Virus record (IMG/VR): IMGVR_UViG_3300016654_000037
Location: 1 to 49,177 of that record
Source of the DNA: a virus
Taxonomy: Duplodnaviria > Caudoviricetes
Strand: one strand, 5' to 3'
Length of the DNA: 49,177 nucleotides
The notes under the pieces are model-generated. The model searched no databases. It saw only the letters and a list, made by a program, of their open reading frames with translations, and was not told where the DNA came from. The position numbers and the translations under genes are program-made. Below, in pieces: positions 4,691-48,746 of this stretch. The stretch's first letter is position 1. Each line of letters opens with the position of its first letter.

Positions 4691-4919
4691 GTCCTTACCT
4701 TGTTCTGTGTGTGACGCACCCGGACCTTCAGACGCTCACCATATCAAACAAGGTAGACAGTACACCTGTGTCGCTTTATGTAAGGACTGCCACCAAGGTT
4801 CTATCCTTGGATGGCATGGTCAGAAGAGAGCTTGGTCTATTAGAAAGATGGACGAGCTAGACGCTTTGAATGTGACTATTCTTCGTTTAGCCGAGACGCT
4901 CTTTCATAAACACCCCTGA
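4641..4919 (+). CDS. Zn-binding HNH-like small nuclease (DUF968/DUF1364/Ref-like)
   Basis: LPCSVC...SDAHH...VALCKDCH motif. Confidence 0.75.
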   Translation: MNNQLSQKEKNWLQKVKSLPCSVCDAPGPSDAHHIKQGRQYTCVALCKDCHQGSILGWHGQKRAWSIRKMDELDALNVTILRLAETLFHKHP

Positions 4920-7900
4920 TCCTCTTGTTAATTCTTAGCCCGTGCTCAGTTTCTGCACTGGCTGCATCTCTTGCACGAAGACTTTGGGTTAGGGTCTGAC
5001 CTGTAATCTCATAGCCGGGATACTTTTCATTGAAGCGTTCAATCGCCGCTTCAATATCTTCAATTGCGTCATAGTCATTCTCATGAATCGCCAAGGCGAA
5101 TCTATTCAATAGTCGCTTACGAGACATGGTTGCTTGAGACTCAACGGCGCGGATGGCTGTGTTCTCTTCCAGTTGTCGGGCGACTTCAGTTGGTGCATAT
5201 CCAATCGCTCTTAAGAACGACTGATAAGTATTCACTTCCTCAACGATGGGATCTCCCTTCATCGTTAAGACACCTTCTGTGTAATAACGGAAACCTTTCA
5301 TACCATTAGCTACCGCTAGAGGGATCATCATCTCTATACCTTGGTAGACGTTCCCATTAGACATGGCGCCTAGACCTTTGGAGAAGTTAATCGCCAACCC
5401 ACCCAAAGGTCCGGTGATGTCTGCAATCCACTGAAGGGTTGCTTCTTTCTGTTCCTGTTCTTCTGCTTGTTTTGCTCCTAGTCTTCCGACCTCTCTGAAG
5501 ATGAGTCCGTTCATAGAGACTCTTTCTGAGAAGTCCGCGCCGGTTAAGTAAGAGACCGGACCCTTAGCGATAATGTCCGCAGCAGAAGCACCTAAAGAGT
5601 CAGTCAGCCAAAGTTTAAACCTTGTCTCTGCATCAAAGACTTCATCTTCCTCATCACCAAACAACGCATTAGCCACTAACATGGTCATGAGATACATCGG
5701 ATAAGGTAACCCCATAACCCCGGAGAAGAGACCTGTCATCCCCATAATCCCGACCAATGTATCTCTAGCTTCTCTTGCTCTGTCAATGGCTTCTTGTTCT
5801 AGAGGGGTACCTTTGTATCTCTTGATCACATGTTTACCCAGGATCTGAGCTTCTCTCAACAGCAGGTAGGTCATGTTCATGCCGTACTGTTTAAACATGA
5901 AGATGACTTTGGCGTATTCACCTTGAGCAATCGGTGCTTTATTAGAAGCTGAGTAATCAAAGTGAGAACGTCTTACTAGACGAGACGCTTCTTTGATGGC
6001 AGCTTCATGGTCGCCTGACTTATCAAACGCCATCCTATAGGCCGCATAAGCCGTTGTAGACCTATTAAAAACTTCTGCCCCGTGGAACATAGCAGCCGTC
6101 CACTTCATGAACGTATTGAGCTTAGTCCCTACTATGGAAGGCTTGTCTGTTAACTGAGCAAGATCCATGGTTTGTGTGCGGGATAAGGTACCGTTATCCA
6201 TCAAAGCTTCTATTGCTTTGAGTTCTCTTTCATATCGTTTCTTATCGGCGCCAGAAGATTCTTTAACTCTTTGTTCTAAAGCACGAACCATAGAGAAAGG
6301 TTCATCTAAGTTCCTTTCTCCTGAAGACATAAACAAACGAGAAGCACCAAGCATCTCATTCATGGCCTTACCAAAACCAAACCTAGCGCCGAGGATAGGA
6401 TAAGCCACCGTAGCATTCTGTGATAGGTTGGTAATCGCTGAAGCAGGAGCGGTAAGGAACCAAGTAAATCCTAAGATCCCCGCTGCATTAGAAAACATAG
6501 ACGAGGGGGTAGGATTAAGGATGAACTCCTGTCTCTTTAATAAAGCGTTAAAGAGTTCTTGAGGTTCAGCGCCTTCGCCTTTCTTATTAGCTTCACTTAT
6601 CCTCTCCCGCATCTGATCCATAGACTTCTCAAACTGCGGGGCATACTTAAGTCTTGCTAAGTTATAGGCTCCATGAAAGGTGTTCTCAGCAAAGACTCTG
6701 ACGATGTCATTACTGTATCCTGGTGTTCCCTTTCTAGGGATGAAGTGCTTCCTCATAGAGACTTCAGGAAGCATCGTGAGATAAGCTGCCCACAGGTCTT
6801 GCTTAAGTTCCGTTGGGTTCTTGGCCGAATCTACCGTATCAATTAACTCTTTGATCACCGAGTTGGGGATAGGCATATTGAGGTTACGTTCCTCTCTTAG
6901 CCCAGCCTTTACGTCTTTAAGATGAGAGATAGATTGTTTAAACTTCTCTGCCTCTGACCGGTTCTCAAACATCACAAACCGTTCTACGCCGTCGTTGTAA
7001 GAGACCCAGTACTGACCGAAACGAGCCAAAGGAAAGTACGGACCTTTGACCCTAGCTGTTTCAAACTGTTTCTTCAGACGAGCATTGATCTCAGCTTTCT
7101 TGTTCTTATCAGTAATGGCTGAGTCTATCCTTTGAAGTAACAAAGCATAGTAAGCGTTGTATCTATTCTCATAGAAGTCTCTCATCTTCCGATAGAGAGC
7201 TTTAGCTTGTGGGTCTAGCTTGTTCCACATCTGTGTGATCGCGGGATTCCTATCAGTACCCGGGCGATCAGGATCAAAGGACGCTAACGTAGAACTATGC
7301 GCCACATCAGCCAATAGTTCAGACTGATCTGGTTTGGCCCGGGCTAAGTCTGATAACTCCTTAGCAATCTTATTCGCCGCAAAGAGTTGCTTGTCTCTAT
7401 AACCTGCCATCTCTTGGAAGGTCTCATAGTAGGTTGTCATCTCAGGTAGGATGTCTTTACCTACGTCTGCTAACTGCTCTAGAGTCAAGAAGTTATAGAG
7501 TAACTTCTTATTATCCAGACCCATATCAAGGATCTTATCTACAACCTGCTTACCAAAGGTCGGGGATTGGGCCATGAACTGATTGACGACGTTCATACCC
7601 TGTTTCGCTGTGACAGGAGACTTAGCTAAGTTGTATCCGTTAGAAGCTTCTTTAGATTGAACAGCGTCTATCTTCTCTAGAGCTTTCTCTTGCATATCTG
7701 CAATCGGGGATCGGGCAAAAGATAGGCGCCGATCATCAATAGAGAAGTCTCCAATATTAAAGACAGACTTAACTTGAGATGGTTCATAGACGGCGAGGTT
7801 CTTAGTACCACCCTCTTCTACATAGAATCCATCAAAACCTAAAGCACGGATAGCTTTCTGTGTATGCGGCTTTTCAATAACAGACCAAAGTCCGGCGCCA

Positions 7901-10900
7901 ATAGTTCTTTTAAGTCCATCTTCACTGTAGCCTTTGTCGGCTTCTCTAATCTTTTTGATGACCTTGGAAACATGCTCAGGATTCTCATAGTCAAAAGGAT
8001 TCTGCGCCGACACATAAACCGGGATCAGGTTAGGCCCGACCGGGACAAGCTCTTGATAGGCGCGGGTTAGGTAATCTAATCCCTCGCCTTGTCTATTTTT
8101 TAACTCAGCAAGTATCTCTGCTCTAGCTCTACCTTTATAGTCTTGACGTATTAAGGCTTGAGCTTTCTTTTCTACTTGAGATTTGATCTCTGGAGTAGCC
8201 CATTCATCTACATGCCTAGCTAACCAAGCATAACTATCTAAAGAGAAAGCCTCGGCAAACTTAGGACTATCAGTTACAAAGATGGCATTGGCTTGCTTAG
8301 GACGGAACGACTCTATGTCTCTAGAGGTACCGTGGTACATAACCTTAGGTCTACCGTCTTCAGTGATCTTGCTGTCTTTGAACCACTGTTTAAACTTCTC
8401 TGATCCCTCCAGCGGGGATCGGGCAAACTTAACAAGCTTTAAGCCTTTCTGCTTGTACTGAGTATGCTCTTCTATCCTAGTCTGTAAATCTTTAGCTAGG
8501 TCTTTAGCTTCTTTGATTAAGGCAGGTGTGCGTATCTCTGCGTAATCCAGATCGCCACGACCTAACCCATCATAGACATACGTTACGTTGTTAATGAACC
8601 GATCCGCGAACTCTCGGTCCTGATCAAAGAAGATCGTGCCGTCATCTTTCAGCGCCGTATCAGCGAGGGCTAAGGTCTTTCTGATATCTGCCCTGACTTG
8701 AGGAGTCAACATCTGCATAGCTGAATAAACACCACCCTCAGTTGCATAACGCTCAAGCTCTCTATCTTCTTTATCTTCTAATTGATTAGAGATGTCTATG
8801 ACATTCCGAGCAAATCTAATGTCTTTCTTGCTTGGGTCAAATGTGCCTCGGTTGCCAATAGCGGATTTAACTGAAGTTCCTCTGCCAAGTGCATAGACAT
8901 CACTATAGTAGGAGTACTTTTTTTCCTTATCTACCGCATACGCTTCACGAGCCATAGGCCCGATGTCAACTACTTGTCTGGCTACAAGAACTTCGCCCGG
9001 GGCAAGGAGTCTAGCGCGGCGGTCAAACTCTATCTTGTCAAAACGACGTGAACCATATCGGTCTACAGTTACAGGGAACTCAGTTAATTTATCTGCCTTG
9101 ACGTATATCGGAAGGATAGAGCCGGGAGTCCCAAAAGTTTCGTCTGGCATACCATATGAGGCAGCAACGTCCGGGCTATCCGATGCAAAAACATTGTACT
9201 CCCCTCTTGGTTCAGCATTGAGTGCTCCCTCCGCATCGCCTTGTATTCCACGATACAAAACTAACGGCTTACCTTCAGGGCCAACAACCTTGCTATCGCC
9301 GAACCAGCGTTTAAACTCTTCACTCTCTACTGATGGCGCCCGAGCAAACTTAACCCTCCCAAATCCATACTCTGCTGGGTTAAATGGCTCCTTCCGTGGA
9401 AGGTCTTTCACCCCGGCAGCGTTATTGATCTTCTCTACTTCTTCAGAAGAAAGGATACGGTTGATCTTCATAGATCCACCGATCAACCAATTACCTGTCA
9501 TGTTGGGATTGGTCTTGTACCGATAGTACCCATCCTCTGGGATCTGATCTTTGATCTCCGCAGTACTAGGATTCATCTGGCCTTTAACGGCGCCCGTTTG
9601 AGGGTTGCTTGTTTTGTAAGCGGTCGCCCGACGATTGGCTTCTGTTTGCCAATCTTTATCGTCCGCCATTTCGACTTCCACCCACACTTCGTCAGGGCGG
9701 CGTATTGTGGGCAGTTTCTTCTCTTCGCCCGATTCTTCGTCGTAACGGAGCGCAGGTTCGCCACCAATATGAGTAGCGATAGGCAAATCTCCGGCATGCC
9801 AGCCGGGGCGCATCGCTAAAGGTCCGAGCTTTGATTTGACTTGAGGACGTCCTGTCTTAGTAGCTTTTGCGCTTTCTCCAATGTCGGCGTCCATCCATTC
9901 GCCAACTGGGACTGGTGTATTGGAATTCACAAACAAAGGGAATAATTCGCCCGGGCGATTTTTCTTAACTTTGAACAGCTTATAAGCAGTAACCGTTTTC
10001 TTAGGCGCGGGTTTAGTACGTCTGGCGAATTTAAACGATGGGTCTTCTTCGTTGATTGAAGTCGGCCCAATACTTACTTCACTTGGTTTGATCTTGTACC
10101 GCATCGCACCAGAGGCGACAAAGTCAAAGACATCATCAGCTGTCTGATAGCCTTTACCTGTGAAGAAGTTTCTTATCCGGCCAAAGAAGTTAGCTAACTT
10201 GTTAAACGCAGTAGCAACTAATCCTGCCGGGGAGAAGGCTTTCTGCATATAGTGTTCAAACGCTACAGCAATAGCTTCTTCTATCTGTATCTCAGGAGAC
10301 ATGTCTGAGTACAACTCAGCCACGGTCTTACCTTGAAGGGCAGGCCACTTTCTCTTTAGCCAATCCTTCTTAGCGGCAGTGGTTAGAGCTTTCCACTCGG
10401 ATTCAGTAAAGAGACCTGCCTCTTTAAAGGCATGGATCGCCTCATGATGTAAGGTCTGAATCCTTGAGCGGGTAGGATTCATGGCGATACTAATGGTCTG
10501 ATTCGTAAAGGCACCGTCCACAGGTGTACCTTGACCGAGCAAAGTCTTGTACAACTTCACCCCAACGTCGGGTAGCCCTAAACGATCCAACTCTTTTCTG
10601 AGTTCCTCTACAGGTTCACCCGTTACTTCTTCTTGTGCAAGAAGATCTGCACTGGGTTCTGCACTGGGTTCTGCACTAACTACCGGTGCATTTGCACTAA
10701 CCGTCGGTGCATTTGCACTAACTTCTTCAGGCTGTTTAAACGCTAAATCCCTAGCTACATCCGGCGTATCACCCGTAGAGACCGGCACCCTTCCTTCTGG
10801 AGTATGTTTAAACGCAGTAAACTCATCAATACCTCTTTCTTTAGTTTCTTCTAAGGGCTTGATTTGTATAGGTTTTTGTAAGGCTTCAAGGATTTGATCT

Positions 10901-12396
10901 TTGATGCCAATTTGTTCATTTAACTTATCTACTTGCTCGGGATAAGTTTTATCTCTGAACGCTTCAAAGTCTTCTCTTGAGACGTTGATAACGTCCTTTT
11001 GTTTTCTATCCAGCTCTTCATCTAACTTAGCAAGCCGTTCAATCAGCTTGGTTCTTTCTTCTTCTTGTTTAGCTATGTCCGCATCTTTCGTGGACTCCAT
11101 AGCATCTTTAAGCCGATTCGCCTCAGCTAAAGTACCAACAGCCCGATCTTGTACACCACTAACGACATACCCCGCCGGGATAAGATCTTGTGCCTTACCT
11201 GTTTGTTCTACCGTAAAGATATCTTCTCCCATCCTAATAGGTTCAATACCTTCAGGAATCCGGGATAGGATTTGATTCTGTGCTTCTAACTTTTGCTGCG
11301 CGGCAATATTTTCCGCTTCAACACGCTGTTGCTCTGCAACCTTAGCTGCTTCCTCAGCTTCTCTAGCTTTAACAAGACCACGCTCTCTAACAGCTTCCAC
11401 AGTAGAAGAGGGAAGGCTAACACCCCCACCAACAATAGCGCCCCGTAAAAATGAATCAATGTAACGGGTAACATTATCAGGCGAGAAAAGGTCATAGTTC
11501 TCTTTTAAAGTCTTAACCGCTAGGTTGTTAATAAACTCTTGGCCTGTTTCTGTAACGCCTTCCGTTAAGAAACCCTTCGCAACACCAGACCCAATCGTCT
11601 TCCAGACCTTAGGATCAGCGCCTGATTCTTTGACCATCTCTCTGATCAAAGCACCTTTACCTACGGTACCGAGTTGATCTAATACTTTCGCCGGAAGAAT
11701 AGAATCCAACGCCGAGGATAAGCCACCATACAAAGCAGCCACCGCAGGTTCCATCTTTCCTGTCTCTTGATAGATACCCTGAAAGACTTCAGGAGCGTTC
11801 TGGGCGTAAGAACCTAAGTAGGTGCCAGCTAACATACCCCGCGTAGCACTACGCTCTGCTGCGGTCTCTGCGGCCTTTACAGCGGCTTCTCTTGCTAGTC
11901 CTTGTCTTGCTGCTCCGGCTAGGGCTTGTCTTGCTGCGGTTTGTGCGCCAACTCTTCCAAGCGTGGCGCCTACCCCGCCCGGGACAAGTGAAGTAAGTAC
12001 ATCAAAAGCACCGCCACCAAGTGCTTCAGCAGCATAACCTAATGCATCTTTACCAGTCTCTACATCTTGATAGGTTTTGTATATCTCAGGGATACGTTCT
12101 TGGAGGGCTTGTTCGGACTTTGCAGCCTCTTCCATTTGCCGCTTGGCATATTCATCATACCCAAATGCCGATCCAAACATGGCCGGAATAACGTCTCCAA
12201 AGCCTATCTTTGCGCGTTCATATTGTCTTTCAAATGCGCGACCTGCTAGCTCCCCAAGACCAAACTGCTGGGGGATGTCTGGTTCTAGACCAGCTTTTTT
12301 TTGAAGTTGTTCCCTTAGGTCAAATATCTGATCAAACGTGTAGTCATCCGGTACAGGAACTCTTCCAACGCCGGGAACATTGATAAGTTTGGGCAT
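4876..12396 (-). CDS. Giant internal virion / ejection polyvalent protein (2506 aa): HExxH metallopeptidase-like domain, RPGWH domain, two ART-PolyVal-like domains, PLxRFG domain
   Basis: Last gene of the virion module. TLHHEAIH (10432-10449), FKRWFGDSKVV...PLVLYRG, FKQWFKDSKI...KVMYHGT, YFPLARFG (about 7014-7035), hydrophobic Gly/Ala-rich N- and C-terminal stretches. Confidence 0.85.
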   Translation of the reverse strand: MPKLINVPGVGRVPVPDDYTFDQIFDLREQLQKKAGLEPDIPQQFGLGELAGRAFERQYERAKIGFGDVIPAMFGSAFGYDEYAKRQMEEAAKSEQALQERIPEIYKTYQDVETGKDALGYAAEALGGGAFDVLTSLVPGGVGATLGRVGAQTAARQALAGAARQGLAREAAVKAAETAAERSATRGMLAGTYLGSYAQNAPEVFQGIYQETGKMEPAVAALYGGLSSALDSILPAKVLDQLGTVGKGALIREMVKESGADPKVWKTIGSGVAKGFLTEGVTETGQEFINNLAVKTLKENYDLFSPDNVTRYIDSFLRGAIVGGGVSLPSSTVEAVRERGLVKAREAEEAAKVAEQQRVEAENIAAQQKLEAQNQILSRIPEGIEPIRMGEDIFTVEQTGKAQDLIPAGYVVSGVQDRAVGTLAEANRLKDAMESTKDADIAKQEEERTKLIERLAKLDEELDRKQKDVINVSREDFEAFRDKTYPEQVDKLNEQIGIKDQILEALQKPIQIKPLEETKERGIDEFTAFKHTPEGRVPVSTGDTPDVARDLAFKQPEEVSANAPTVSANAPVVSAEPSAEPSADLLAQEEVTGEPVEELRKELDRLGLPDVGVKLYKTLLGQGTPVDGAFTNQTISIAMNPTRSRIQTLHHEAIHAFKEAGLFTESEWKALTTAAKKDWLKRKWPALQGKTVAELYSDMSPEIQIEEAIAVAFEHYMQKAFSPAGLVATAFNKLANFFGRIRNFFTGKGYQTADDVFDFVASGAMRYKIKPSEVSIGPTSINEEDPSFKFARRTKPAPKKTVTAYKLFKVKKNRPGELFPLFVNSNTPVPVGEWMDADIGESAKATKTGRPQVKSKLGPLAMRPGWHAGDLPIATHIGGEPALRYDEESGEEKKLPTIRRPDEVWVEVEMADDKDWQTEANRRATAYKTSNPQTGAVKGQMNPSTAEIKDQIPEDGYYRYKTNPNMTGNWLIGGSMKINRILSSEEVEKINNAAGVKDLPRKEPFNPAEYGFGRVKFARAPSVESEEFKRWFGDSKVVGPEGKPLVLYRGIQGDAEGALNAEPRGEYNVFASDSPDVAASYGMPDETFGTPGSILPIYVKADKLTEFPVTVDRYGSRRFDKIEFDRRARLLAPGEVLVARQVVDIGPMAREAYAVDKEKKYSYYSDVYALGRGTSVKSAIGNRGTFDPSKKDIRFARNVIDISNQLEDKEDRELERYATEGGVYSAMQMLTPQVRADIRKTLALADTALKDDGTIFFDQDREFADRFINNVTYVYDGLGRGDLDYAEIRTPALIKEAKDLAKDLQTRIEEHTQYKQKGLKLVKFARSPLEGSEKFKQWFKDSKITEDGRPKVMYHGTSRDIESFRPKQANAIFVTDSPKFAEAFSLDSYAWLARHVDEWATPEIKSQVEKKAQALIRQDYKGRARAEILAELKNRQGEGLDYLTRAYQELVPVGPNLIPVYVSAQNPFDYENPEHVSKVIKKIREADKGYSEDGLKRTIGAGLWSVIEKPHTQKAIRALGFDGFYVEEGGTKNLAVYEPSQVKSVFNIGDFSIDDRRLSFARSPIADMQEKALEKIDAVQSKEASNGYNLAKSPVTAKQGMNVVNQFMAQSPTFGKQVVDKILDMGLDNKKLLYNFLTLEQLADVGKDILPEMTTYYETFQEMAGYRDKQLFAANKIAKELSDLARAKPDQSELLADVAHSSTLASFDPDRPGTDRNPAITQMWNKLDPQAKALYRKMRDFYENRYNAYYALLLQRIDSAITDKNKKAEINARLKKQFETARVKGPYFPLARFGQYWVSYNDGVERFVMFENRSEAEKFKQSISHLKDVKAGLREERNLNMPIPNSVIKELIDTVDSAKNPTELKQDLWAAYLTMLPEVSMRKHFIPRKGTPGYSNDIVRVFAENTFHGAYNLARLKYAPQFEKSMDQMRERISEANKKGEGAEPQELFNALLKRQEFILNPTPSSMFSNAAGILGFTWFLTAPASAITNLSQNATVAYPILGARFGFGKAMNEMLGASRLFMSSGERNLDEPFSMVRALEQRVKESSGADKKRYERELKAIEALMDNGTLSRTQTMDLAQLTDKPSIVGTKLNTFMKWTAAMFHGAEVFNRSTTAYAAYRMAFDKSGDHEAAIKEASRLVRRSHFDYSASNKAPIAQGEYAKVIFMFKQYGMNMTYLLLREAQILGKHVIKRYKGTPLEQEAIDRAREARDTLVGIMGMTGLFSGVMGLPYPMYLMTMLVANALFGDEEDEVFDAETRFKLWLTDSLGASAADIIAKGPVSYLTGADFSERVSMNGLIFREVGRLGAKQAEEQEQKEATLQWIADITGPLGGLAINFSKGLGAMSNGNVYQGIEMMIPLAVANGMKGFRYYTEGVLTMKGDPIVEEVNTYQSFLRAIGYAPTEVARQLEENTAIRAVESQATMSRKRLLNRFALAIHENDYDAIEDIEAAIERFNEKYPGYEITGQTLTQSLRARDAASAETEHGLRINKRIRGVYERASRLNEE
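10646..10722 (-). repeat. In-frame 12-nt and 21-nt tandem repeats (SANAPTVSANAPVVSAEPSAEPSA linker)
   Basis: tctgcactgggt twice followed by tctgcact, then tgcactaac...cggtgcatt twice. Confidence 0.85.
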
Positions 12397-18634: not shown

Positions 18635-19105
18635 TTACCTCATCAACGCAGCTTCAGCCGCACGGCGGCGGGTAAGTCCGGGGAGAACTCTTCCAGCAGC
18701 TTTGTTCCACAATAGACATTGATCAGCTGCACCATCCCAATCCCCCGCATCAACACGTCGTTTAAACGTAGAAACCCTGTAGTTTCCTAAGCCGCAATTG
18801 TAGACCCAGCTAGTCACTGCGGCAATTCTTCTGGGAGATGCCTTTGGAAACGCCGGACTAAGTTTGCAAACACCTGCATAAAAGTATTCAATGTGATGAT
18901 CTAGGGCATCCTCACACTGAGCCATCGTCCAAATAGTTCCCGGTTGGATGTCAGGGCCGGTGGCTCCCCAGCCAATCGTCCAAGGATGTCCTTTGGTTCC
19001 GGGGTCCGGATAGGAAGTTACCTTCCCATCAGGCAGACGTTTAGCCAGCCCTTCAAAGGGCTTGATGAGTACATCTCTAGCTAGCTTCTTTGCCTCTTCA
19101 TTCAC
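18635..19105 (-). CDS. Endolysin, GH24 (lambda/P21-type muramidase-like lysozyme)
   Basis: FEG...YPDP...WTIGWGAT, YNCGLG, WNKAAGRVLPGLTRRRAAE. Confidence 0.92.
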   Translation of the reverse strand: MNEEAKKLARDVLIKPFEGLAKRLPDGKVTSYPDPGTKGHPWTIGWGATGPDIQPGTIWTMAQCEDALDHHIEYFYAGVCKLSPAFPKASPRRIAAVTSWVYNCGLGNYRVSTFKRRVDAGDWDGAADQCLLWNKAAGRVLPGLTRRRAAEAALMR

Positions 19106-19767
19106 GCTTCAAACCTGTTTCTTTTTGAGCAATTTATTGATGCTGGTATGACTTGTAAGTTATTAGGCACGTGTAGGCCACAAACAATCTTCCCTTGCAG
19201 CGGGACTATATGGTCTACGTGCCACTTAAAACCAAACATTTGCGTTCTAAGCTTGGCTAACTCATAAGCCTGCTCTAACATCCAGTGATCGTCTTCTGTA
19301 AGCCATGACGGAGTTGCTTTAAGTTTGTTTGCGTACCGTCTCATAACTATTGCATTTACACGGGCCGCATTGTCTTTTTTCCATTCGTTTACGCGCTGCT
19401 TTATTTGCTCTTTATTATTTTGATAATTAACGGCCATGTTTTCCCTGTGCCGCTCTTTATTTTCACAATAATATTGTTGTTTTTTTAGCTTCAATTGCTC
19501 TGCATGTTTTTCTCTATACTTTTTGTCCGCGTTGGCTTTTATTTTTTTAAATTCAGGGTTTTCTTTTCTTGTTTGTTTATATTGCAACAACTTCTCTGGG
19601 TTTTCTTTGTACCATATTTGTTGCTTCACAAGATATTTATGTTGATTTAATCTCCGATATTCATTTTTACACTGTTTACATTGGACGCAATAACCGTCTT
19701 TGCTGCGAATTGTTTTTGGGAATAAATCCAAAGTTTTTTCCGCCCCGCATTTACTACACTTTTTCAT
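19102..19767 (-). CDS. Freestanding HNH endonuclease
   Basis: N-terminal CxxC...CxxC, C-terminal HVDHIVPLQGKIVCGLHVPNNLQVIPASINCSKRN. AT-rich. Confidence 0.88.
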   Translation of the reverse strand: MKKCSKCGAEKTLDLFPKTIRSKDGYCVQCKQCKNEYRRLNQHKYLVKQQIWYKENPEKLLQYKQTRKENPEFKKIKANADKKYREKHAEQLKLKKQQYYCENKERHRENMAVNYQNNKEQIKQRVNEWKKDNAARVNAIVMRRYANKLKATPSWLTEDDHWMLEQAYELAKLRTQMFGFKWHVDHIVPLQGKIVCGLHVPNNLQVIPASINCSKRNRFEA

Positions 19768-39902: not shown

Positions 39903-40442
39903 TTAAGACGTTGCAAACGGTGTGGCAGGAGAACCCGTGCAATTGATTAAGCCGGTCACCATATACTTCAGCGCCGCAACCGCAACAATCTGCACCCATG
40001 TGCCTGCAACGCCACCAGTTGTCGTGCCATTTAGATTGATAAAGTCATCGTTTGCACCAGCAGTAAATCCTGCCATGGCGCCCGATGAGTCTGTGTCTAC
40101 ACTTGCAATAGATCCAACAAACCGGTCTGTTCCGTCTGTGCCAATCTTTAGCGAAGACGTGGAGATTGTCGTTGGAACCCAGATGGTGTAAACAACGCCT
40201 TCGTTATTGGCTGTATTGGGGTTGTTGCCCGGGCCAGACGAAGATACGTTAGCTGATGTATTAATTGCAGGAAGCGTAAGAACCACGTTAGCTGCTAGTG
40301 AACCACCAACAGAAATAATCCTGCCGCCATGAGCCAGCGGGGTAAGTGTGGTGCTTGCTGTGATTTCTACAATGGTGGACGGACCTTGCTGATAAATGCC
40401 GCCCAGTGAACGGATAGGACCATCAAAGGTAGTGATTGCCAT
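39903..40442 (-). CDS. Virion structural protein (capsid fibre / decoration-like)
   Basis: MAITTFDGPIRS N-terminus, LNGTTTGG...ATPFA C-terminus, GGAG RBS. Confidence 0.75.
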   Translation of the reverse strand: MAITTFDGPIRSLGGIYQQGPSTIVEITASTTLTPLAHGGRIISVGGSLAANVVLTLPAINTSANVSSSGPGNNPNTANNEGVVYTIWVPTTISTSSLKIGTDGTDRFVGSIASVDTDSSGAMAGFTAGANDDFINLNGTTTGGVAGTWVQIVAVAALKYMVTGLINCTGSPATPFATS

Positions 40443-40522
40443 AATAACTCCGAGTAGTAGCTCATCCCCATACCGTCTCTACTAAGTCTGCTAGGCCAGT
40501 CGGTACAGGTAAAAATCCTAGT
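40443..40522 (-). ncRNA. Candidate structured cis-regulatory RNA (double pseudoknot) in the 5' UTR of 39903..40442
   Basis: Three crossing helices: CUAGG/CCUAG, CCUGUACCG/CGGUAUGGG and UAGUAG/CUACUA. Lies between a promoter and an RBS. Confidence 0.6.
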
Positions 40523-40527
40523 GCCTC

Positions 40528-40556
40528 TTTGTATCAGTTTAAACGCTAGGTGTCAA
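40528..40556 (-). promoter_or_regulatory. Sigma70-type promoter
   Basis: TTGACA (40556-40551), 17-nt spacer, TGa-TACAAA extended -10 (hexamer 40533-40528). Confidence 0.65.
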
Positions 40557-41136
40557 TGAGCTTATTGGATTTGCGTAGGTTTTCTTCCTGCGTCATAACA
40601 CGAAGATTCCATGGAACATGAAGGCCGCAAACAATATCTGACCGCAAAGGAATAATATGGTCAACGACATACTGCTCTCCTGTGGTCTGAGTCATGGTGA
40701 TTGCAATTTGATAAAGCTGCCGAATCTCCGATTTATGTTTTCTAGAAAGCCATTTTGGTGTCGCCTCTCTATGTTTCCTTCTTCTTGCTTTTGTATCAGC
40801 TCTTACTTGAAGTTTATTGTTTAGCTTCCATGCGTTTCTATATTGACGCAAAATTTCTGGCGGTCTAATAGCGGCAGCTTGAATAACCTGTTCTTTGTTA
40901 GCTTCATACCATTCATTCTTTCTGTCTTTAACATCCTCGCGTTTGTTGTACTCACGGAAGTAATCACTACGCTTTTCAGCAGCTTGCTGCCATTCCACTT
41001 TCAAACACTCAATACACGCACCCTTGGTCTTGCGTGGAGCTAAGTGTCCATGTTTGCATGGCTCCCCCGTGAAGTAATACTTAGCACCTTTGTTTTGCGC
41101 TTCTTTGCGAGTTTTAGGTAGGCTTGTGGTATCCAT
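40546..41136 (-). CDS. Freestanding HNH endonuclease
   Basis: YFTGEPCKHGH...CIEC N-terminus. VDHIIPLRSDIVCGLHVPWNLRVMTQEENLRKSN. Confidence 0.88.
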   Translation of the reverse strand: MDTTSLPKTRKEAQNKGAKYYFTGEPCKHGHLAPRKTKGACIECLKVEWQQAAEKRSDYFREYNKREDVKDRKNEWYEANKEQVIQAAAIRPPEILRQYRNAWKLNNKLQVRADTKARRRKHREATPKWLSRKHKSEIRQLYQIAITMTQTTGEQYVVDHIIPLRSDIVCGLHVPWNLRVMTQEENLRKSNKLIDT

Positions 41137-41141
41137 TTCAT

Positions 41142-41174
41142 CTCCTGTGACTTAGTAACAGGGAATATACCACA
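41142..41174 (-). promoter_or_regulatory. Extended -10 promoter plus RBS-sequestering hairpin of the HNH gene
   Basis: Minus strand TGTGG-TATATT, followed by CCUGU-UACUAAGUC-ACAGG overlapping the AGGAG RBS. Confidence 0.5.
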
Positions 41175-41184
41175 ACAAGATTAG

Positions 41185-41213
41185 AAAACAAAAAACCCCG
41201 CCAAAGCGGGGTT
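41185..41213 (-). terminator. Rho-independent terminator after the major capsid gene
   Basis: AACCCCGC-TTTG-GCGGGGTT followed by TTTTGTTTT. Confidence 0.9.
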
Positions 41214-41238
41214 CTCTGCGCTAAGTGCTTGATTTATA

Positions 41239-42147
41239 TCAAGCCCCCTGGCTGCCAAAGATACCGAGAGGATCTGAGACCCCGAATGAGTACCGTTCAC
41301 GGGCTTTATAGCGAACGTTTCCGGTATCAAAATCACCATCCATTCCAGTAGCCATCGGCACACGAACAAAGTGCTTCAGACCATTAGGAACATCGGTCGT
41401 AAGGAACCAGCCGTTGGTGTCCGTCAGCCAGTGGTTGATCGTATAACCCTCGGGGATAGACCCGTTGTTCTTGATGGCGTTGATGTCGTTGTTGTTGGTA
41501 CCGACACGGAGTTCAGTTTCCAACAGACGCGTTGCCACGAACTGGAGGTTAGAAGGAACAATCAACTTGCGGGGACGTGCTGCAATCAACAGACCACGTT
41601 CATCCGTCCATGCTGCAATTTGAATGACGGCATTCTCAAGAGAAGTCTCATTCAGGTCAGCTTGGGTGGAAGGCGTGTTGCTGTTAGTGCCGCCTGATAC
41701 CAGCGGATGTGACGTAGAGAATAGAGGCTGTCCATCACCGTAAGTTACGGTAGATGCCCATCCGTTGTTCAGCACGGCTGCTGCTTTCACCTGTTTGGTG
41801 TAAGCCATAGAACGTGCCAGAGCTTTTGTATAACGGCCAGAGAGGCTGTCGTACAAATTATCTTCAATCGCCTCTTCGGTGATTGAAAAGCCCATGGCAA
41901 TCGTTTCATGCTGGTAACGGGCGGTCCAAGCTTCCTGCGCGTTGTCATAAGCAATCGCAGCGCCTTCGTTCTTCACCGGAGCGGCAGAGAATCCAGACAG
42001 CTTGGTTTCCTCTTCAAACGAACGCTCAGAGGTCTCGGTTTCGTAGATCTCTTTGTGTTCTTCACCATAACGAGCATACTCCATGCCGAACAATGCGTTC
42101 AAGCCGGGGAGAAGCTCTTTCAGTAGTTGTGCGCGTGAAATAGCCAT
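41239..42147 (-). CDS. Major capsid protein (HK97 fold, Mu gpT-like)
   Basis: MAISRAQLLKELLPGLNALFG...RYTKALARSM...YKARERYSFG. Followed by a terminator. Confidence 0.9.
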   Translation of the reverse strand: MAISRAQLLKELLPGLNALFGMEYARYGEEHKEIYETETSERSFEEETKLSGFSAAPVKNEGAAIAYDNAQEAWTARYQHETIAMGFSITEEAIEDNLYDSLSGRYTKALARSMAYTKQVKAAAVLNNGWASTVTYGDGQPLFSTSHPLVSGGTNSNTPSTQADLNETSLENAVIQIAAWTDERGLLIAARPRKLIVPSNLQFVATRLLETELRVGTNNNDINAIKNNGSIPEGYTINHWLTDTNGWFLTTDVPNGLKHFVRVPMATGMDGDFDTGNVRYKARERYSFGVSDPLGIFGSQGA

Positions 42148-44161: not shown

Positions 44162-44509
44162 TTATGCGCGGGTAATACCGCGTGGGTCTTGCACAACAGC
44201 TTCTACCGAGTCATCGTTAATCAAACGAAACTCCCTGTTGTGAATCTTGAATCGGGTGCCTGAGTAAGCGCGGACTAAAATAAAATCGCCCTCTTTACAC
44301 CACGGACCATTAGGGAATCTGGTTTTGTCTTTAAAACAATCCGGACCCATCTTGGCTACAAACAAAACAACCGTGCTGAACTCTTCAATCTTTTGCAGGC
44401 TGTCTGGTTTGAGTAGCCCGTTTTCAAACTTATCTTCAATCTCTGGAATAAAGCACAACATCCTGTAACCCGAAGGTTCTGGAAGTTGCGTGGCTTTTTC
44501 TTCAGTCAT
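44162..44509 (-). CDS. GroES/Cpn10-like co-chaperonin
   Basis: PSGYRML...GLL...MGPDCF...WCKEGDFI...YSGTRF...RLINDDSV. Start MTEE at 44509. Confidence 0.85.
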   Translation of the reverse strand: MTEEKATQLPEPSGYRMLCFIPEIEDKFENGLLKPDSLQKIEEFSTVVLFVAKMGPDCFKDKTRFPNGPWCKEGDFILVRAYSGTRFKIHNREFRLINDDSVEAVVQDPRGITRA

Positions 44510-44684
44510 CGTCAATCCTTTCTGCAAGGTCTTTAAGGATCTCATTTGCAGTCAAAAGACCTTGAATCTGACCACAAACGTGCTTGTATTCATCAAATGA
44601 CTTGATGCTTCCTTGCGAGAGCGTCTCTGATAAATACTTGACTTGCTTAAGAATTTCTAACGAAACCGCTTCTGCGAAGGTCAT
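44502..44684 (-). CDS. Small conserved protein downstream of portal
   Basis: FDEYKHVCGQIQGL motif. Confidence 0.7.
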   Translation of the reverse strand: MTFAEAVSLEILKQVKYLSETLSQGSIKSFDEYKHVCGQIQGLLTANEILKDLAERIDDD

Positions 44685-47026: not shown

Positions 47027-48522
47027 CAGTAGTACCCCACCTTTCTTCTAAAATAGACGGGATCATCAGGTTCATCAGTTTGCAAACGGACAAATCCACC
47101 TTTTCTAAACCGAATCAATGCTTGGGTGGTAGAGTCAGTCAAGTCGTCGTTGTCCGAATAAGGAAATCCGGCTATCTCTTCCATGACTTCTTCCGCCCAA
47201 CGTTTGCGAGGTGCCCATACTTTTCCGGAGGAAAATAAGTCAGAGACAGCGTTTACACGCACCACTTTATCATTTCCCCGTGATGGTGTGAACTCTTGAA
47301 CCGGAATCCCCATCTGTCTTAACTCATAAATAAGCGGCGCACCAGCCGCCTTAGCCTCTACAACAAATGCATCAGGCTCCCAATCCTTCCACATTTCAAA
47401 GGCTTTTCTCTTTAAATCAGGGAACTCCAGACGCTCTTTAAACGCATCTAAAAGAATGACATGAGCATCCGGACCTTCATCAGGATGAAACACGCCCCAC
47501 GTTGTACAAGCGGAGTAGTCTGAACGATTACTCTTTGTAAACGCCGTATCCCAGCTTTGAATAATAAATTCACAAGAAGGTGGCCTATCTGCTTCCCAGA
47601 CTTTCCACCACTCTCTTTTAATAATCGCGCCTTCTTCAGATGTAGGCTTTTGCTGATATTGGGCGTTCCACTTACTAACGGGCAGTTCAGCTTTTAAAGA
47701 TTCCAATTCCTCTATCGGCCAAAACTCCGGCCACAAAGGATTGCCACTTGGTAAAAGAGCGGGAAGCTCAATAATCTCCCACTCATTAATCTTTTCATCC
47801 TCAATGGATGACTTTAAAATCCTGCCGGTCAAGTCTTTCGTAGACCAACGGGTCATCACAATAACAATAGACCCCCCAGGCTGGAGACGCTGTCTTGGGC
47901 CTGACGTATACCACTCATAGACCGAATCAAAAATGCCGGGATCGGTCATGGCTAACTTAGCCTCTTGCTCCGAATGAGGATCATCAATAATAAGAAGATC
48001 CGCACCTTTACCGGTTACAGCACCGCCCACACCAATAGCAAAATACTCCCCGCCGTGATTAGTACTCCAACGACCAGCAGCCTTACTATCAGCCTGAAGT
48101 CCGACATTTGGAAAGACTTCCTTATATACATCCGCCCCAACAAGGTTCCTAACTTTCCTGCCAAACCCTACTGCTAACTCAGCCGTATGAGAAGTCTGTA
48201 TCACCTTCTTTTGGGGGAATCGGCCTAAGAACCAACTAGGCAATAAAAAGGAAGCAAACTCACTCTTTGTATGTCTAGGTGGCATATTAATGATCACCCG
48301 CTTTAAATCACCACTAGCGATCCTTTCAAACTTATCCGCCATTAACTTGTGATGTCTTCCAGCAATAAACCCGGGCCACATCTTCTTCACATAATGCAGA
48401 AAGCTATGCTGAGATCTTTCTCTATCCCTAGCACCTTTGTATTCATCTAATAACTTCAACACCTCCGCCTGTTTTTCCACAGGTAGATGCGGAAGTTTCT
48501 TTAAGACCTGATCCAAGTTCAT
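47026..48522 (-). CDS. terL: Terminase large subunit
   Basis: Walker A-like MPPRHTKS, Walker B LLIIDD, QSWDTA and DDLTDS RNaseH-like nuclease motifs. Confidence 0.95.
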   Translation of the reverse strand: MNLDQVLKKLPHLPVEKQAEVLKLLDEYKGARDRERSQHSFLHYVKKMWPGFIAGRHHKLMADKFERIASGDLKRVIINMPPRHTKSEFASFLLPSWFLGRFPQKKVIQTSHTAELAVGFGRKVRNLVGADVYKEVFPNVGLQADSKAAGRWSTNHGGEYFAIGVGGAVTGKGADLLIIDDPHSEQEAKLAMTDPGIFDSVYEWYTSGPRQRLQPGGSIVIVMTRWSTKDLTGRILKSSIEDEKINEWEIIELPALLPSGNPLWPEFWPIEELESLKAELPVSKWNAQYQQKPTSEEGAIIKREWWKVWEADRPPSCEFIIQSWDTAFTKSNRSDYSACTTWGVFHPDEGPDAHVILLDAFKERLEFPDLKRKAFEMWKDWEPDAFVVEAKAAGAPLIYELRQMGIPVQEFTPSRGNDKVVRVNAVSDLFSSGKVWAPRKRWAEEVMEEIAGFPYSDNDDLTDSTTQALIRFRKGGFVRLQTDEPDDPVYFRRKVGYY

Positions 48523-48746
48523 GTTTGGATCTTCCTAAACTTCACCCCTTGCGGTCTTAACGTCCTCTGTTTTCCTTTCTGTTGCCGTACCGCACCCATC
48601 TCCACCAACCGATTACATATCCGGTGGATGTTGCCTCTACCTCTAGCACCTAAGACCATCATAATGTCATCAATGCTAGGAGAAAAACCATATTTCTTCC
48701 ACCACTCATCAATGACAAAAAATACCTCTAGCTGTCTGGGAGTCAT
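48519..48746 (-). CDS. LexA N-terminal-like winged-helix DNA-binding protein (no peptidase domain)
   Basis: MTPRQLEVF..I...WKKYGFSPSIDDI...L..RGRGNIHR...L...G...R. Confidence 0.8.
   Translation of the reverse strand: MTPRQLEVFFVIDEWWKKYGFSPSIDDIMMVLGARGRGNIHRICNRLVEMGAVRQQKGKQRTLRPQGVKFRKIQT

Follow-up and report, generated by a model that had tools for sequence, protein, structure and literature searches.

The whole of a 49177-nt phage record (the window; IMG/VR record IMGVR_UViG_3300016654_000037) was analysed, and the question raised by one gap on its minus strand was what RNA is encoded there and what that RNA does for the gene that follows. The order along the minus strand is terminase, portal, a Mu gpT-like capsid gene, a terminator-like hairpin, an HNH-like gene, a gap of 103 nt and a gene for a 179-aa protein (Table 1). 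The gap holds a 67-base fold, here called the knotted leader, and the Mu gpT-like capsid gene lies upstream of it with only the optional HNH-like gene between. Relatives (80) were collected by match to the 179-aa downstream protein. An HNH-like gene was found in 30 of these and another insert of ~1 kb in 15; the capsid gene lay within 261 nt in 28, and 7 had no capsid gene in the stretch examined. Across these varied capsid-to-gene spacings the leader RNA travels with the downstream gene. The interval between capsid terminator and promoter is itself a hot spot for optional genes: it holds the HNH-like gene in the window (40546-41136) and, in L088, L132, L146, L168 and L193, GIY-YIG-like and transposase-like starts (names assigned by eye).

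Table 1. Features of the leader and its neighbours in the window (minus strand), with the basis for each.
Feature	Position	Strand	Basis or remark
Major capsid protein, Mu gpT-like	41239..42147	-	PF25209 E 1.2e-15, PF10124 E 2.1e-11, phrog_371
Intrinsic terminator-like hairpin 3' of capsid gene	41188..41219	-	Folding z -4.41 for 41137-41240
Optional HNH / endonuclease VII-like gene, between capsid terminator and promoter	40546..41136	-	PHROG 1035 E 2e-13
Predicted -35, TTGACA	40556-40551	-	Sequence; within last codons of HNH-like gene
Predicted extended -10, TG-A-TACAAA (TG 40536-40535, TACAAA 40533-40528)	40528..40536	-	17-nt spacer from -35
Strand a, 5' end, pseudoknot 1 with loop of hairpin d	40517..40521	-	209/212 and 65/68 relatives
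Helix b, 5' strand, closes junction	40501..40509	-	9/9 pairs change on both sides, 95.5% paired
Junction A	40500	-	Single-A linker
Hairpin d (40499-40497 with 40490-40488; 6-nt loop holds a', 40495-40491)	40488..40499	-	100% paired in 94-row alignment
Junction A	40487	-	Single-A linker
Hairpin e, 2 bp (40486-40485 with 40478-40477; 6-nt loop c, 40484-40479)	40477..40486	-	Alignment counts
Junction A	40476	-	Single-A linker
Helix b, 3' strand	40467..40475	-	Pairs with 40509-40501, two G-U
Strand c', pseudoknot 2 with loop c	40455..40460	-	Ends 3 nt before SD, 12 nt before ATG
Shine-Dalgarno (SD), GGAG	40451-40448	-	Sequence
Start codon, ATG	40442	-	Sequence
Putatively controlled gene, 179-aa beta-rich protein, MxxTTFxGP start	39903..40442	-	Predicted capsid spike/decoration

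Structure of the leader

The fold is a three-way junction in which helix b (9-10 pairs) leads through a single A into hairpin d, through a second A into hairpin e and through a third A back into b. Hairpin d has 3, sometimes 4, pairs and hairpin e has 2, each with a 6-nt loop, and both loops are clamped by the flanks: that of d by the 5' end (strand a) and that of e (loop c) by the 3' strand c'. The first-pass annotation of this DNA had described helices a/a', b/b' (9 bp, two G-U) and c/c'; all three were recovered at the same coordinates and covary in relatives. It had called the CUG/CAG hairpin optional, whereas in relatives this is a fixed fourth helix, d, paired in 100% of the 94 aligned rows, and a fifth helix, e, absent from that description, completes the junction. 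Its view that the whole leader is structure was borne out, the fold filling the leader from strand a at the predicted 5' end to c' beside the SD.

Single-sequence folding of the window was no better than chance (MFE z 0.31 to -0.39 over three spans). An unfitted MAFFT alignment of 94 rows was made from the window and 93 of 255 descriptor hits, thinned to below 88% core identity; the descriptor required b and d. The 14 nested pairs were formed in 93.3% of cells, versus 62.3% after shuffling and 19-45% with slid partners; none of 500 shuffles reached 93.3%, and changes on both sides were seen at 13 of the 14 pairs. The middle pair of hairpin d was U-A in 55 rows, A-U in 33, C-G in 4 and G-C in 2, and the first pair of hairpin e was C-G in 92 and U-A in 2. 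The second pair of e, counted over 209 hits of the pattern described below, was G.A in 122, G-C in 42, U-A in 26, A.A in 11, A-U in 4 and other in 4.

Because the alignment rows had been selected for pairing, the tests were repeated on sets that had not. Strands a and c' shift register in both alignments, column-wise counts were dropped for them, and the pseudoknots were judged by comparing each loop with its own and with swapped partners. The second set comprised 212 unique complete hits among 240 matches to a pattern that did not ask for b, a or c. Positions 1-9 of b were paired in 82-95% of these, the 5-base Watson-Crick partner (a) of each loop d lay upstream in 209/212 (swapped loops, 0.2%), and c formed 6 of 6 pairs in 196/209. 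The third set consisted of 68 distinct loci selected by capsid. Here a/a' was exact in 65, with one mismatch in each of the remaining 3 (swapped partners, 1.5%), and in 67, representing 20 loop variants, c/c' formed at least 5 Watson-Crick pairs (swapped partners, 12%). A descriptor scan returned 127 matches on the sense strand and 0 on the opposite strand. The covariation check on homologous leaders thus found all three of the originally described helices conserved and covarying.

Two further pairings were considered and rejected. A hairpin of a' with c, which single-sequence folding offers, cannot be formed by the common loop pairs of the relatives and is not taken as the ON state, and a 6-pair match of loop c to the spacer between SD and start in the window is not kept in L001.

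Promoter and transcript start

The letters and 17-nt spacing of the promoter that had been proposed (TTGACA-17nt-TACAAA) are as described. It is not listed by a consensus promoter scan, its -10 having no T at the last place, but it is conserved in relatives. The -35 is kept in L027, a relative without the HNH gene, and TTG peaks 36-38 nt 5' of strand a. By a loose rule, a -10-like site lies 12-21 nt 5' of strand a in 207/244 relatives, against 73 (maximum 95) in shuffles, with a peak at 13-15 nt; the TG extension is present in the window and in many relatives. The transcript probably starts at ~40522-40521, 0-3 nt before strand a, as judged from these conserved sites. Ten RNA runs matched, each with a small word share; assembled contigs of relatives from 4 of them cover the leader, as contigs that carry neither RNA ends nor levels.

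Relation to Mu-gpT-DE and distribution

At the gathering score, Rfam gave 0 matches in the window and 20 relatives, and at E up to 10 it gave only terminator-driven or chance matches, none of them a family matching the window leader. A model (R1) was built from the 94-row alignment. It matched one copy in the window, 70/80 capsid-selected viral loci and, at E below 0.01, 27/52 capsid loci in GTDB genomes; these 52 loci sit in unrelated MAGs and are probably mis-binned contigs. The capsid loci missed by R1 revealed a shorter RNA in the same slot, namely Mu-gpT-DE (RF03012), whose model scored 71.4 and 74.5 bits in two simple relatives and 27.9 bits in a third. RF03012 had no match at the window locus even at E up to 10 (gathering cut-off, 49 bits), nor in 5 other records with knotted forms.

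Three forms were distinguished. In Form I (RF03012, simple), b has 4 pairs and its 3' strand begins the SD, hairpin d is long and there is no 5' pseudoknot. Form II (intermediate) combines a long b with the 5' pseudoknot and has no dedicated c'. Form III (knotted, as in the window) has both pseudoknots. The window and RF03012 share the slot after a gpT-like capsid gene and before a MxxTTFxGP gene, and the window has the RF03012 core of helix, A, C(A/U)G hairpin, AC, loop, GA and helix. They differ in that the closing helix of the knotted form has 9-10 pairs (9 in the window) and is clear of the SD, against 4 in RF03012; hairpin d is shortened to 3 pairs, and the 5' end pairs with its loop; and the second loop targets not the start codon but a separate strand of its own upstream of the SD. 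The junction letters are common to all forms: A in 257, AC in 254 and GA in 255 of 263 descriptor hits, 8 of which were false. Among loci with at least 600 nt upstream, a capsid match was found upstream in 67/71 for Form I, 24/24 for Form II and 186/192 for Form III. On a FastTree tree of the capsid (248 rows) the three forms intermingle; there are 17 changes, few of them on well-supported branches, and no order of origin is therefore claimed.

On this comparative evidence, the leader is a widespread, uncatalogued and more elaborate variant of a known orphan phage RNA, conserved in many phages of lakes and the ocean. The novelty first claimed for it holds in that the knotted form has no Rfam match, and was overstated in that core, slot and type of downstream gene are common to RF03012. 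Narrow patterns gave IMG/VR estimates, counted in stretches and not genomes, of ~4500 and ~3100 for the knotted form versus ~3900 for the simple form; the knotted form would thus more than double the reach of this orphan Rfam motif and give it a testable job. Complete metagenome pattern hits comprised this RNA in 90/115 cases and chance matches in 25/115, and all 90 true hits precede the same gene type.

The leader also occurs in cultured phages. R1 scored 48.5 bits in the pelagiphage HTVC023P, and the Roseobacter phage CRP-902 carries the simple form. HTVC027P has a divergent variant that scored only 9.3 bits; at L706:2965-3050 and L709:2945-3028 (HTVC027P, 023Pt_psg01), hairpin d is short or altered, c' overlaps the SD (by eye) and R1 misses the RNA. 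The smallest form was seen in L626, L630, L642 and L644, with a 4-pair closing helix, d capped by a GAAA-type loop and no 5' pseudoknot. The leader is not essential in every lineage, since at L075:1449-1501 only 52 nt, containing no leader RNA, separate a close homologue of the downstream gene from the capsid gene before it, and R1 and Rfam found nothing credible before the matching genes of MinM2 and an Alcaligenes phage.

The RF03012 model has 53 positions and 9 nested pairs with no pseudoknot as printed; the Mu-gpT-DE structure in ZWD has 11 pairs versus 9 in Rfam. Mu-gpT-DE was reportedly first catalogued in Weinberg 2017. The main text of PMC5737381 does not contain 'gpT'. Rivas 2020 (PMC7657543), in the parts covered, places Mu-gpT-DE under loop and non-Watson-Crick covariations and not among new pseudoknots; a 'pk_1' label near it in the supplement was considered and belongs to another panel. 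The abstract, one section and the supplement of Eckert 2023 (PMC10085705) hold nothing bearing on the knotted RNA. No function for RF03012 was found in the literature searched, and the knotted form is not described in the portions covered; the Weinberg 2017 supplement and the Fremin 2023 alignments and table may hold the RNA or the start-codon pairing, and Fremin 2023 (PMC10690425) may contain the knotted RNA unnamed.

Pairing of the second loop with the initiation region

In Form I, b' is the first half of the SD and the loop of hairpin e pairs with the start codon region. Codon 2 was scored in 109 unique loci out of 120 retrieved. The base that precedes the final CC of the loop and the second letter of codon 2 were G-C in 71 (Met-Ala), C-G in 37 (Met-Gly) and an A.G mismatch in 1 of the 109, and the next loop position was paired in 85/109. 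All 105 loci with an ATG or GTG start formed at least 4 pairs, whereas swapped loops gave only 3 in 42%. The four Form I loci with a TTG start keep the pairing of loop and start. This pairing (Mu-gpT-DE; L156:2472-2524, L184:3986-4038, L710:2496-2548, L465-L584) is absent from the printed Rfam structure line. On a capsid tree of 61 rows the codon-2 state changed 15 times, and at starred branches 6 of 6 independent pairs agreed (p 0.03); the Ala/Gly changes may be cassette swaps rather than fresh compensations, which could inflate this count. Such covariation of an RNA loop with codon 2 is unusually direct evidence for translational control.

Form II loops fit the start in the listed members with 4-5 pairs, where the pattern had fixed part of the loop. 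Among 185 Form III members with an SD match of at least 4, c' overlaps or abuts the SD in 156 and lies 1-5 nt from it in 29. The gap is -1 or 0 in 140/185, 3 nt as in the window in 16/185 and 4-5 nt in 10/185, and the 3' end of c' lies 6-18 nt upstream of the start. In L087, L094, L096 and L111 the loop sequence is an anti-SD. As judged from these pairings, the conserved role of the second loop is pairing into the initiation region, whatever the wiring, and the leader is likely a translational gate. As an aside, in L059, L012 and others with the commonest loop, c' contains an AUG just 5' of the SD, in many cases with a stop codon directly after it.

The downstream protein

The downstream proteins start with MxxTTFxGP or a variant and fall into 7 clusters. 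The 179-aa protein had no Pfam or PHROG match. Among solved structures, its model (pLDDT 81) best matches the knob at the C-terminus of the Pa223 capsid spike (9ny6_C; Foldseek E 1.6e-5; VIA Z 10.3, rmsd 2.4, 99 aligned residues); a baseplate chain is level with it at Z 10.0, ahead of tailspike domains at Z 8-8.9. A sequence search of solved structures with the capsid, the downstream family and a DSL-LC04 protein gave nothing significant, and the ESM Atlas gave only unnamed clusters above 0.9. One relative, from the assembled genome DSL-LC04, carries the annotation 'cement protein'. From the structural match, the downstream gene product is predicted to be a capsid spike or decoration protein. 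The Pa223 spike is reported to be anchored through its N-terminal 40 residues (bioRxiv 10.1101/2025.06.11.659172), which fits the conserved N-terminus on variable bodies in the downstream family. The downstream proteins are acidic (median K+R 3%; net positive, 5/101), and the capsid protein is also net acidic (26 K+R vs 37 D+E).

During HTVC027P infection the homologous gp62 is reported as a late gene (PMC12753301). Over the last three time points, its mean TPM was 12786, 22241 and 28568, that of the capsid gene 10371, 33390 and 74585 and that of the next gene 3198, 6216 and 9428 (PMC12753301, Table S3). The gp62 message therefore stood at 1.2, 0.67 and 0.38 times that of the capsid and at about three to four times that of the next gene. 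These levels are consistent with a separate promoter and are no proof of one.

Proposed mechanism and alternatives

The first-pass annotation had offered a translational switch, a self-cleaving ribozyme or a structural virion RNA. Translational control is the best supported of the three, pseudoknot 2 targeting the initiation region, and no support was found for the other two. We tentatively favour, with somewhat less than even confidence, a translational OFF gate on the predicted spike gene, kept closed by a protein of the phage head. The message would start 0-3 nt before strand a, from a promoter of its own behind the capsid terminator, as the conservation of that promoter suggests. Helices b, d and e then form the junction and the 5' end docks into loop d, a pairing shown by covariation; where the simple form has a hairpin of roughly 8 pairs, docking would stack 3+5 pairs. 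Loop c pairs into the initiation region, as covariation again shows: in the simple and intermediate forms its target is the start codon, in the knotted form the SD or the six bases that precede the SD. The closed fold would block 30S loading, less directly in the window since c' there stops 3 nt short of the SD. A trans factor, most likely free capsid or another conserved head-module protein, would read the invariant junction and set the closed fraction, so matching spike supply to head assembly.

The junction letters kept across the forms support such a gate because a plain hairpin attenuator would not need them, and so does the tie of all three forms to one capsid family; against their being read by a protein, tertiary packing alone can explain the invariant adenosines. 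Feedback by the spike itself is disfavoured, since the downstream proteins are acidic, are poor candidates for RNA binding and fall into 7 clusters. The net acidic capsid protein and the leaderless L075 likewise count against the gate. T4 gp32, an mRNA-specific autogenous translational repressor (PMC535899), is a precedent, and autoregulation of the P22 scaffolding gene is reported in the title of a reference. The likeness to the T4 gene 32 and P22 scaffolding operators is that of a structured phage-gene leader possibly read by a phage protein; gp32 differs in being a nucleic-acid binder, whereas the downstream protein here is acidic, and no shared sequence or fold is expected. The GP20-a and GP20-b motifs (RF02991, RF03003) are described as putative cis-regulatory RNAs that immediately precede a single family of phage genes (PMC10690425); that gene is a different one, and the window RNA has no Rfam match to either motif.

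The wider reading, that one junction in three wirings makes up a ligand-gated, phage-confined family of RNA switches that reads head assembly and meters a capsid-surface protein, is possible and is held with more doubt than the gate. If true, it would turn the orphan Mu-gpT-DE into a testable regulator in very abundant aquatic phages. Cultured phage-host pairs exist (HTVC023P and HTVC027P on Pelagibacter, CRP-902 on Roseobacter), and the near two-fold junction, compact and with each loop clamped by a flank, is a good structure target.

Rather unlikely is a fixed attenuator and 5'-end protector that has no ligand, in which a set lowering of initiation on a stable, abundant message gives the spike-to-capsid ratio. 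The burial of the 5' end in pseudoknot 1, the late and abundant gp62 message in HTVC027P infection (PMC12753301) and the absence of an evident ligand fit this explanation, but many hairpins would serve the purpose and yet one junction of fixed letters is kept in three architectures, and the simple form has no 5' pseudoknot.

We consider it improbable that the leader is a small-molecule or ion riboswitch, in which a junction ligand would stabilise the pseudoknot over the SD or start codon. The preQ1-, SAM-II- and SAM/SAH-type translational switches are the comparison for a ligand-stabilised pseudoknot, and the compact 5'-end fold, the pseudoknot into the initiation site, the invariant junction and the small number of pairs (4-6) in the simple form all speak for it. 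However, the few invariant unpaired bases are three adenosines, the same virion gene type and never a metabolic gene followed in 90/90 metagenome hits, and R1 matched in 0/151 sampled bacterial genomes, a scan with stricter filters and no positive control.

A translation enhancer, with the knot docked on the 30S platform and presenting the SD for strong late translation, is more improbable still: c' mostly ends at the SD edge in the knotted form (140/185) and leaves most of the SD free, but the simple form pairs both SD and start codon and the loop is anti-SD in some knotted members.

A new class of self-cleaving ribozyme is very improbable. Size, double pseudoknot and invariant junction are like those of small ribozymes in general, and a compact double pseudoknot is the feature in common with HDV-like and hammerhead ribozymes. 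In HDV-like ribozymes the P1 3' strand follows P3 outside its loop, P1.1 and P4 are present and a catalytic C precedes the P2 3' strand; in the window a' is located within loop d, and an invariant A immediately precedes b'. The hammerhead core has unpaired CUGANGA and GAAA, whereas CUG in the window is a helix arm that swaps with CAG (55 vs 33 of 94) and the second strand is GA followed by a variable helix. The earlier statement that the topology is unlike hammerhead or HDV was thus correct in strand order and in catalytic letters, and no Rfam ribozyme matched at E up to 10. CUGA is only a helix arm swapping with CAGA, the promoter lies directly before the fold, and the simple form takes in SD and start codon. 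Class 1 flavivirus xrRNAs are also compact double pseudoknots, built on a three-way junction that takes in the 5' end by pairing and whose last loop pairs with sequence further downstream; any likeness is topological only, with no Rfam match.

Least probable of all is a separate structural or packaging virion RNA, for which the head-module location, the predicted promoter and the RF03012 type 'Gene; sRNA' would speak, but there is no terminator-like site on its strand between fold and gene, and the RNA continues into the SD and, in the simple form, is paired to bases of the coding sequence.

Other genes of the window

Four further genes on the minus strand of the window were recorded. A 2506-aa protein (4876-12396) has a C-terminal DarB-like match (phrog_10089, E 2.5e-120), while its N-terminus weakly matches a virion RNA polymerase family (E 5.5e-7). 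The late module holds another endonuclease VII / HNH-like gene (19102-19767); a GroES-like gene lies in the head module (44162-44545) and a gene for a small LexA-type DNA-binding protein before the terminase gene (48519-48746).
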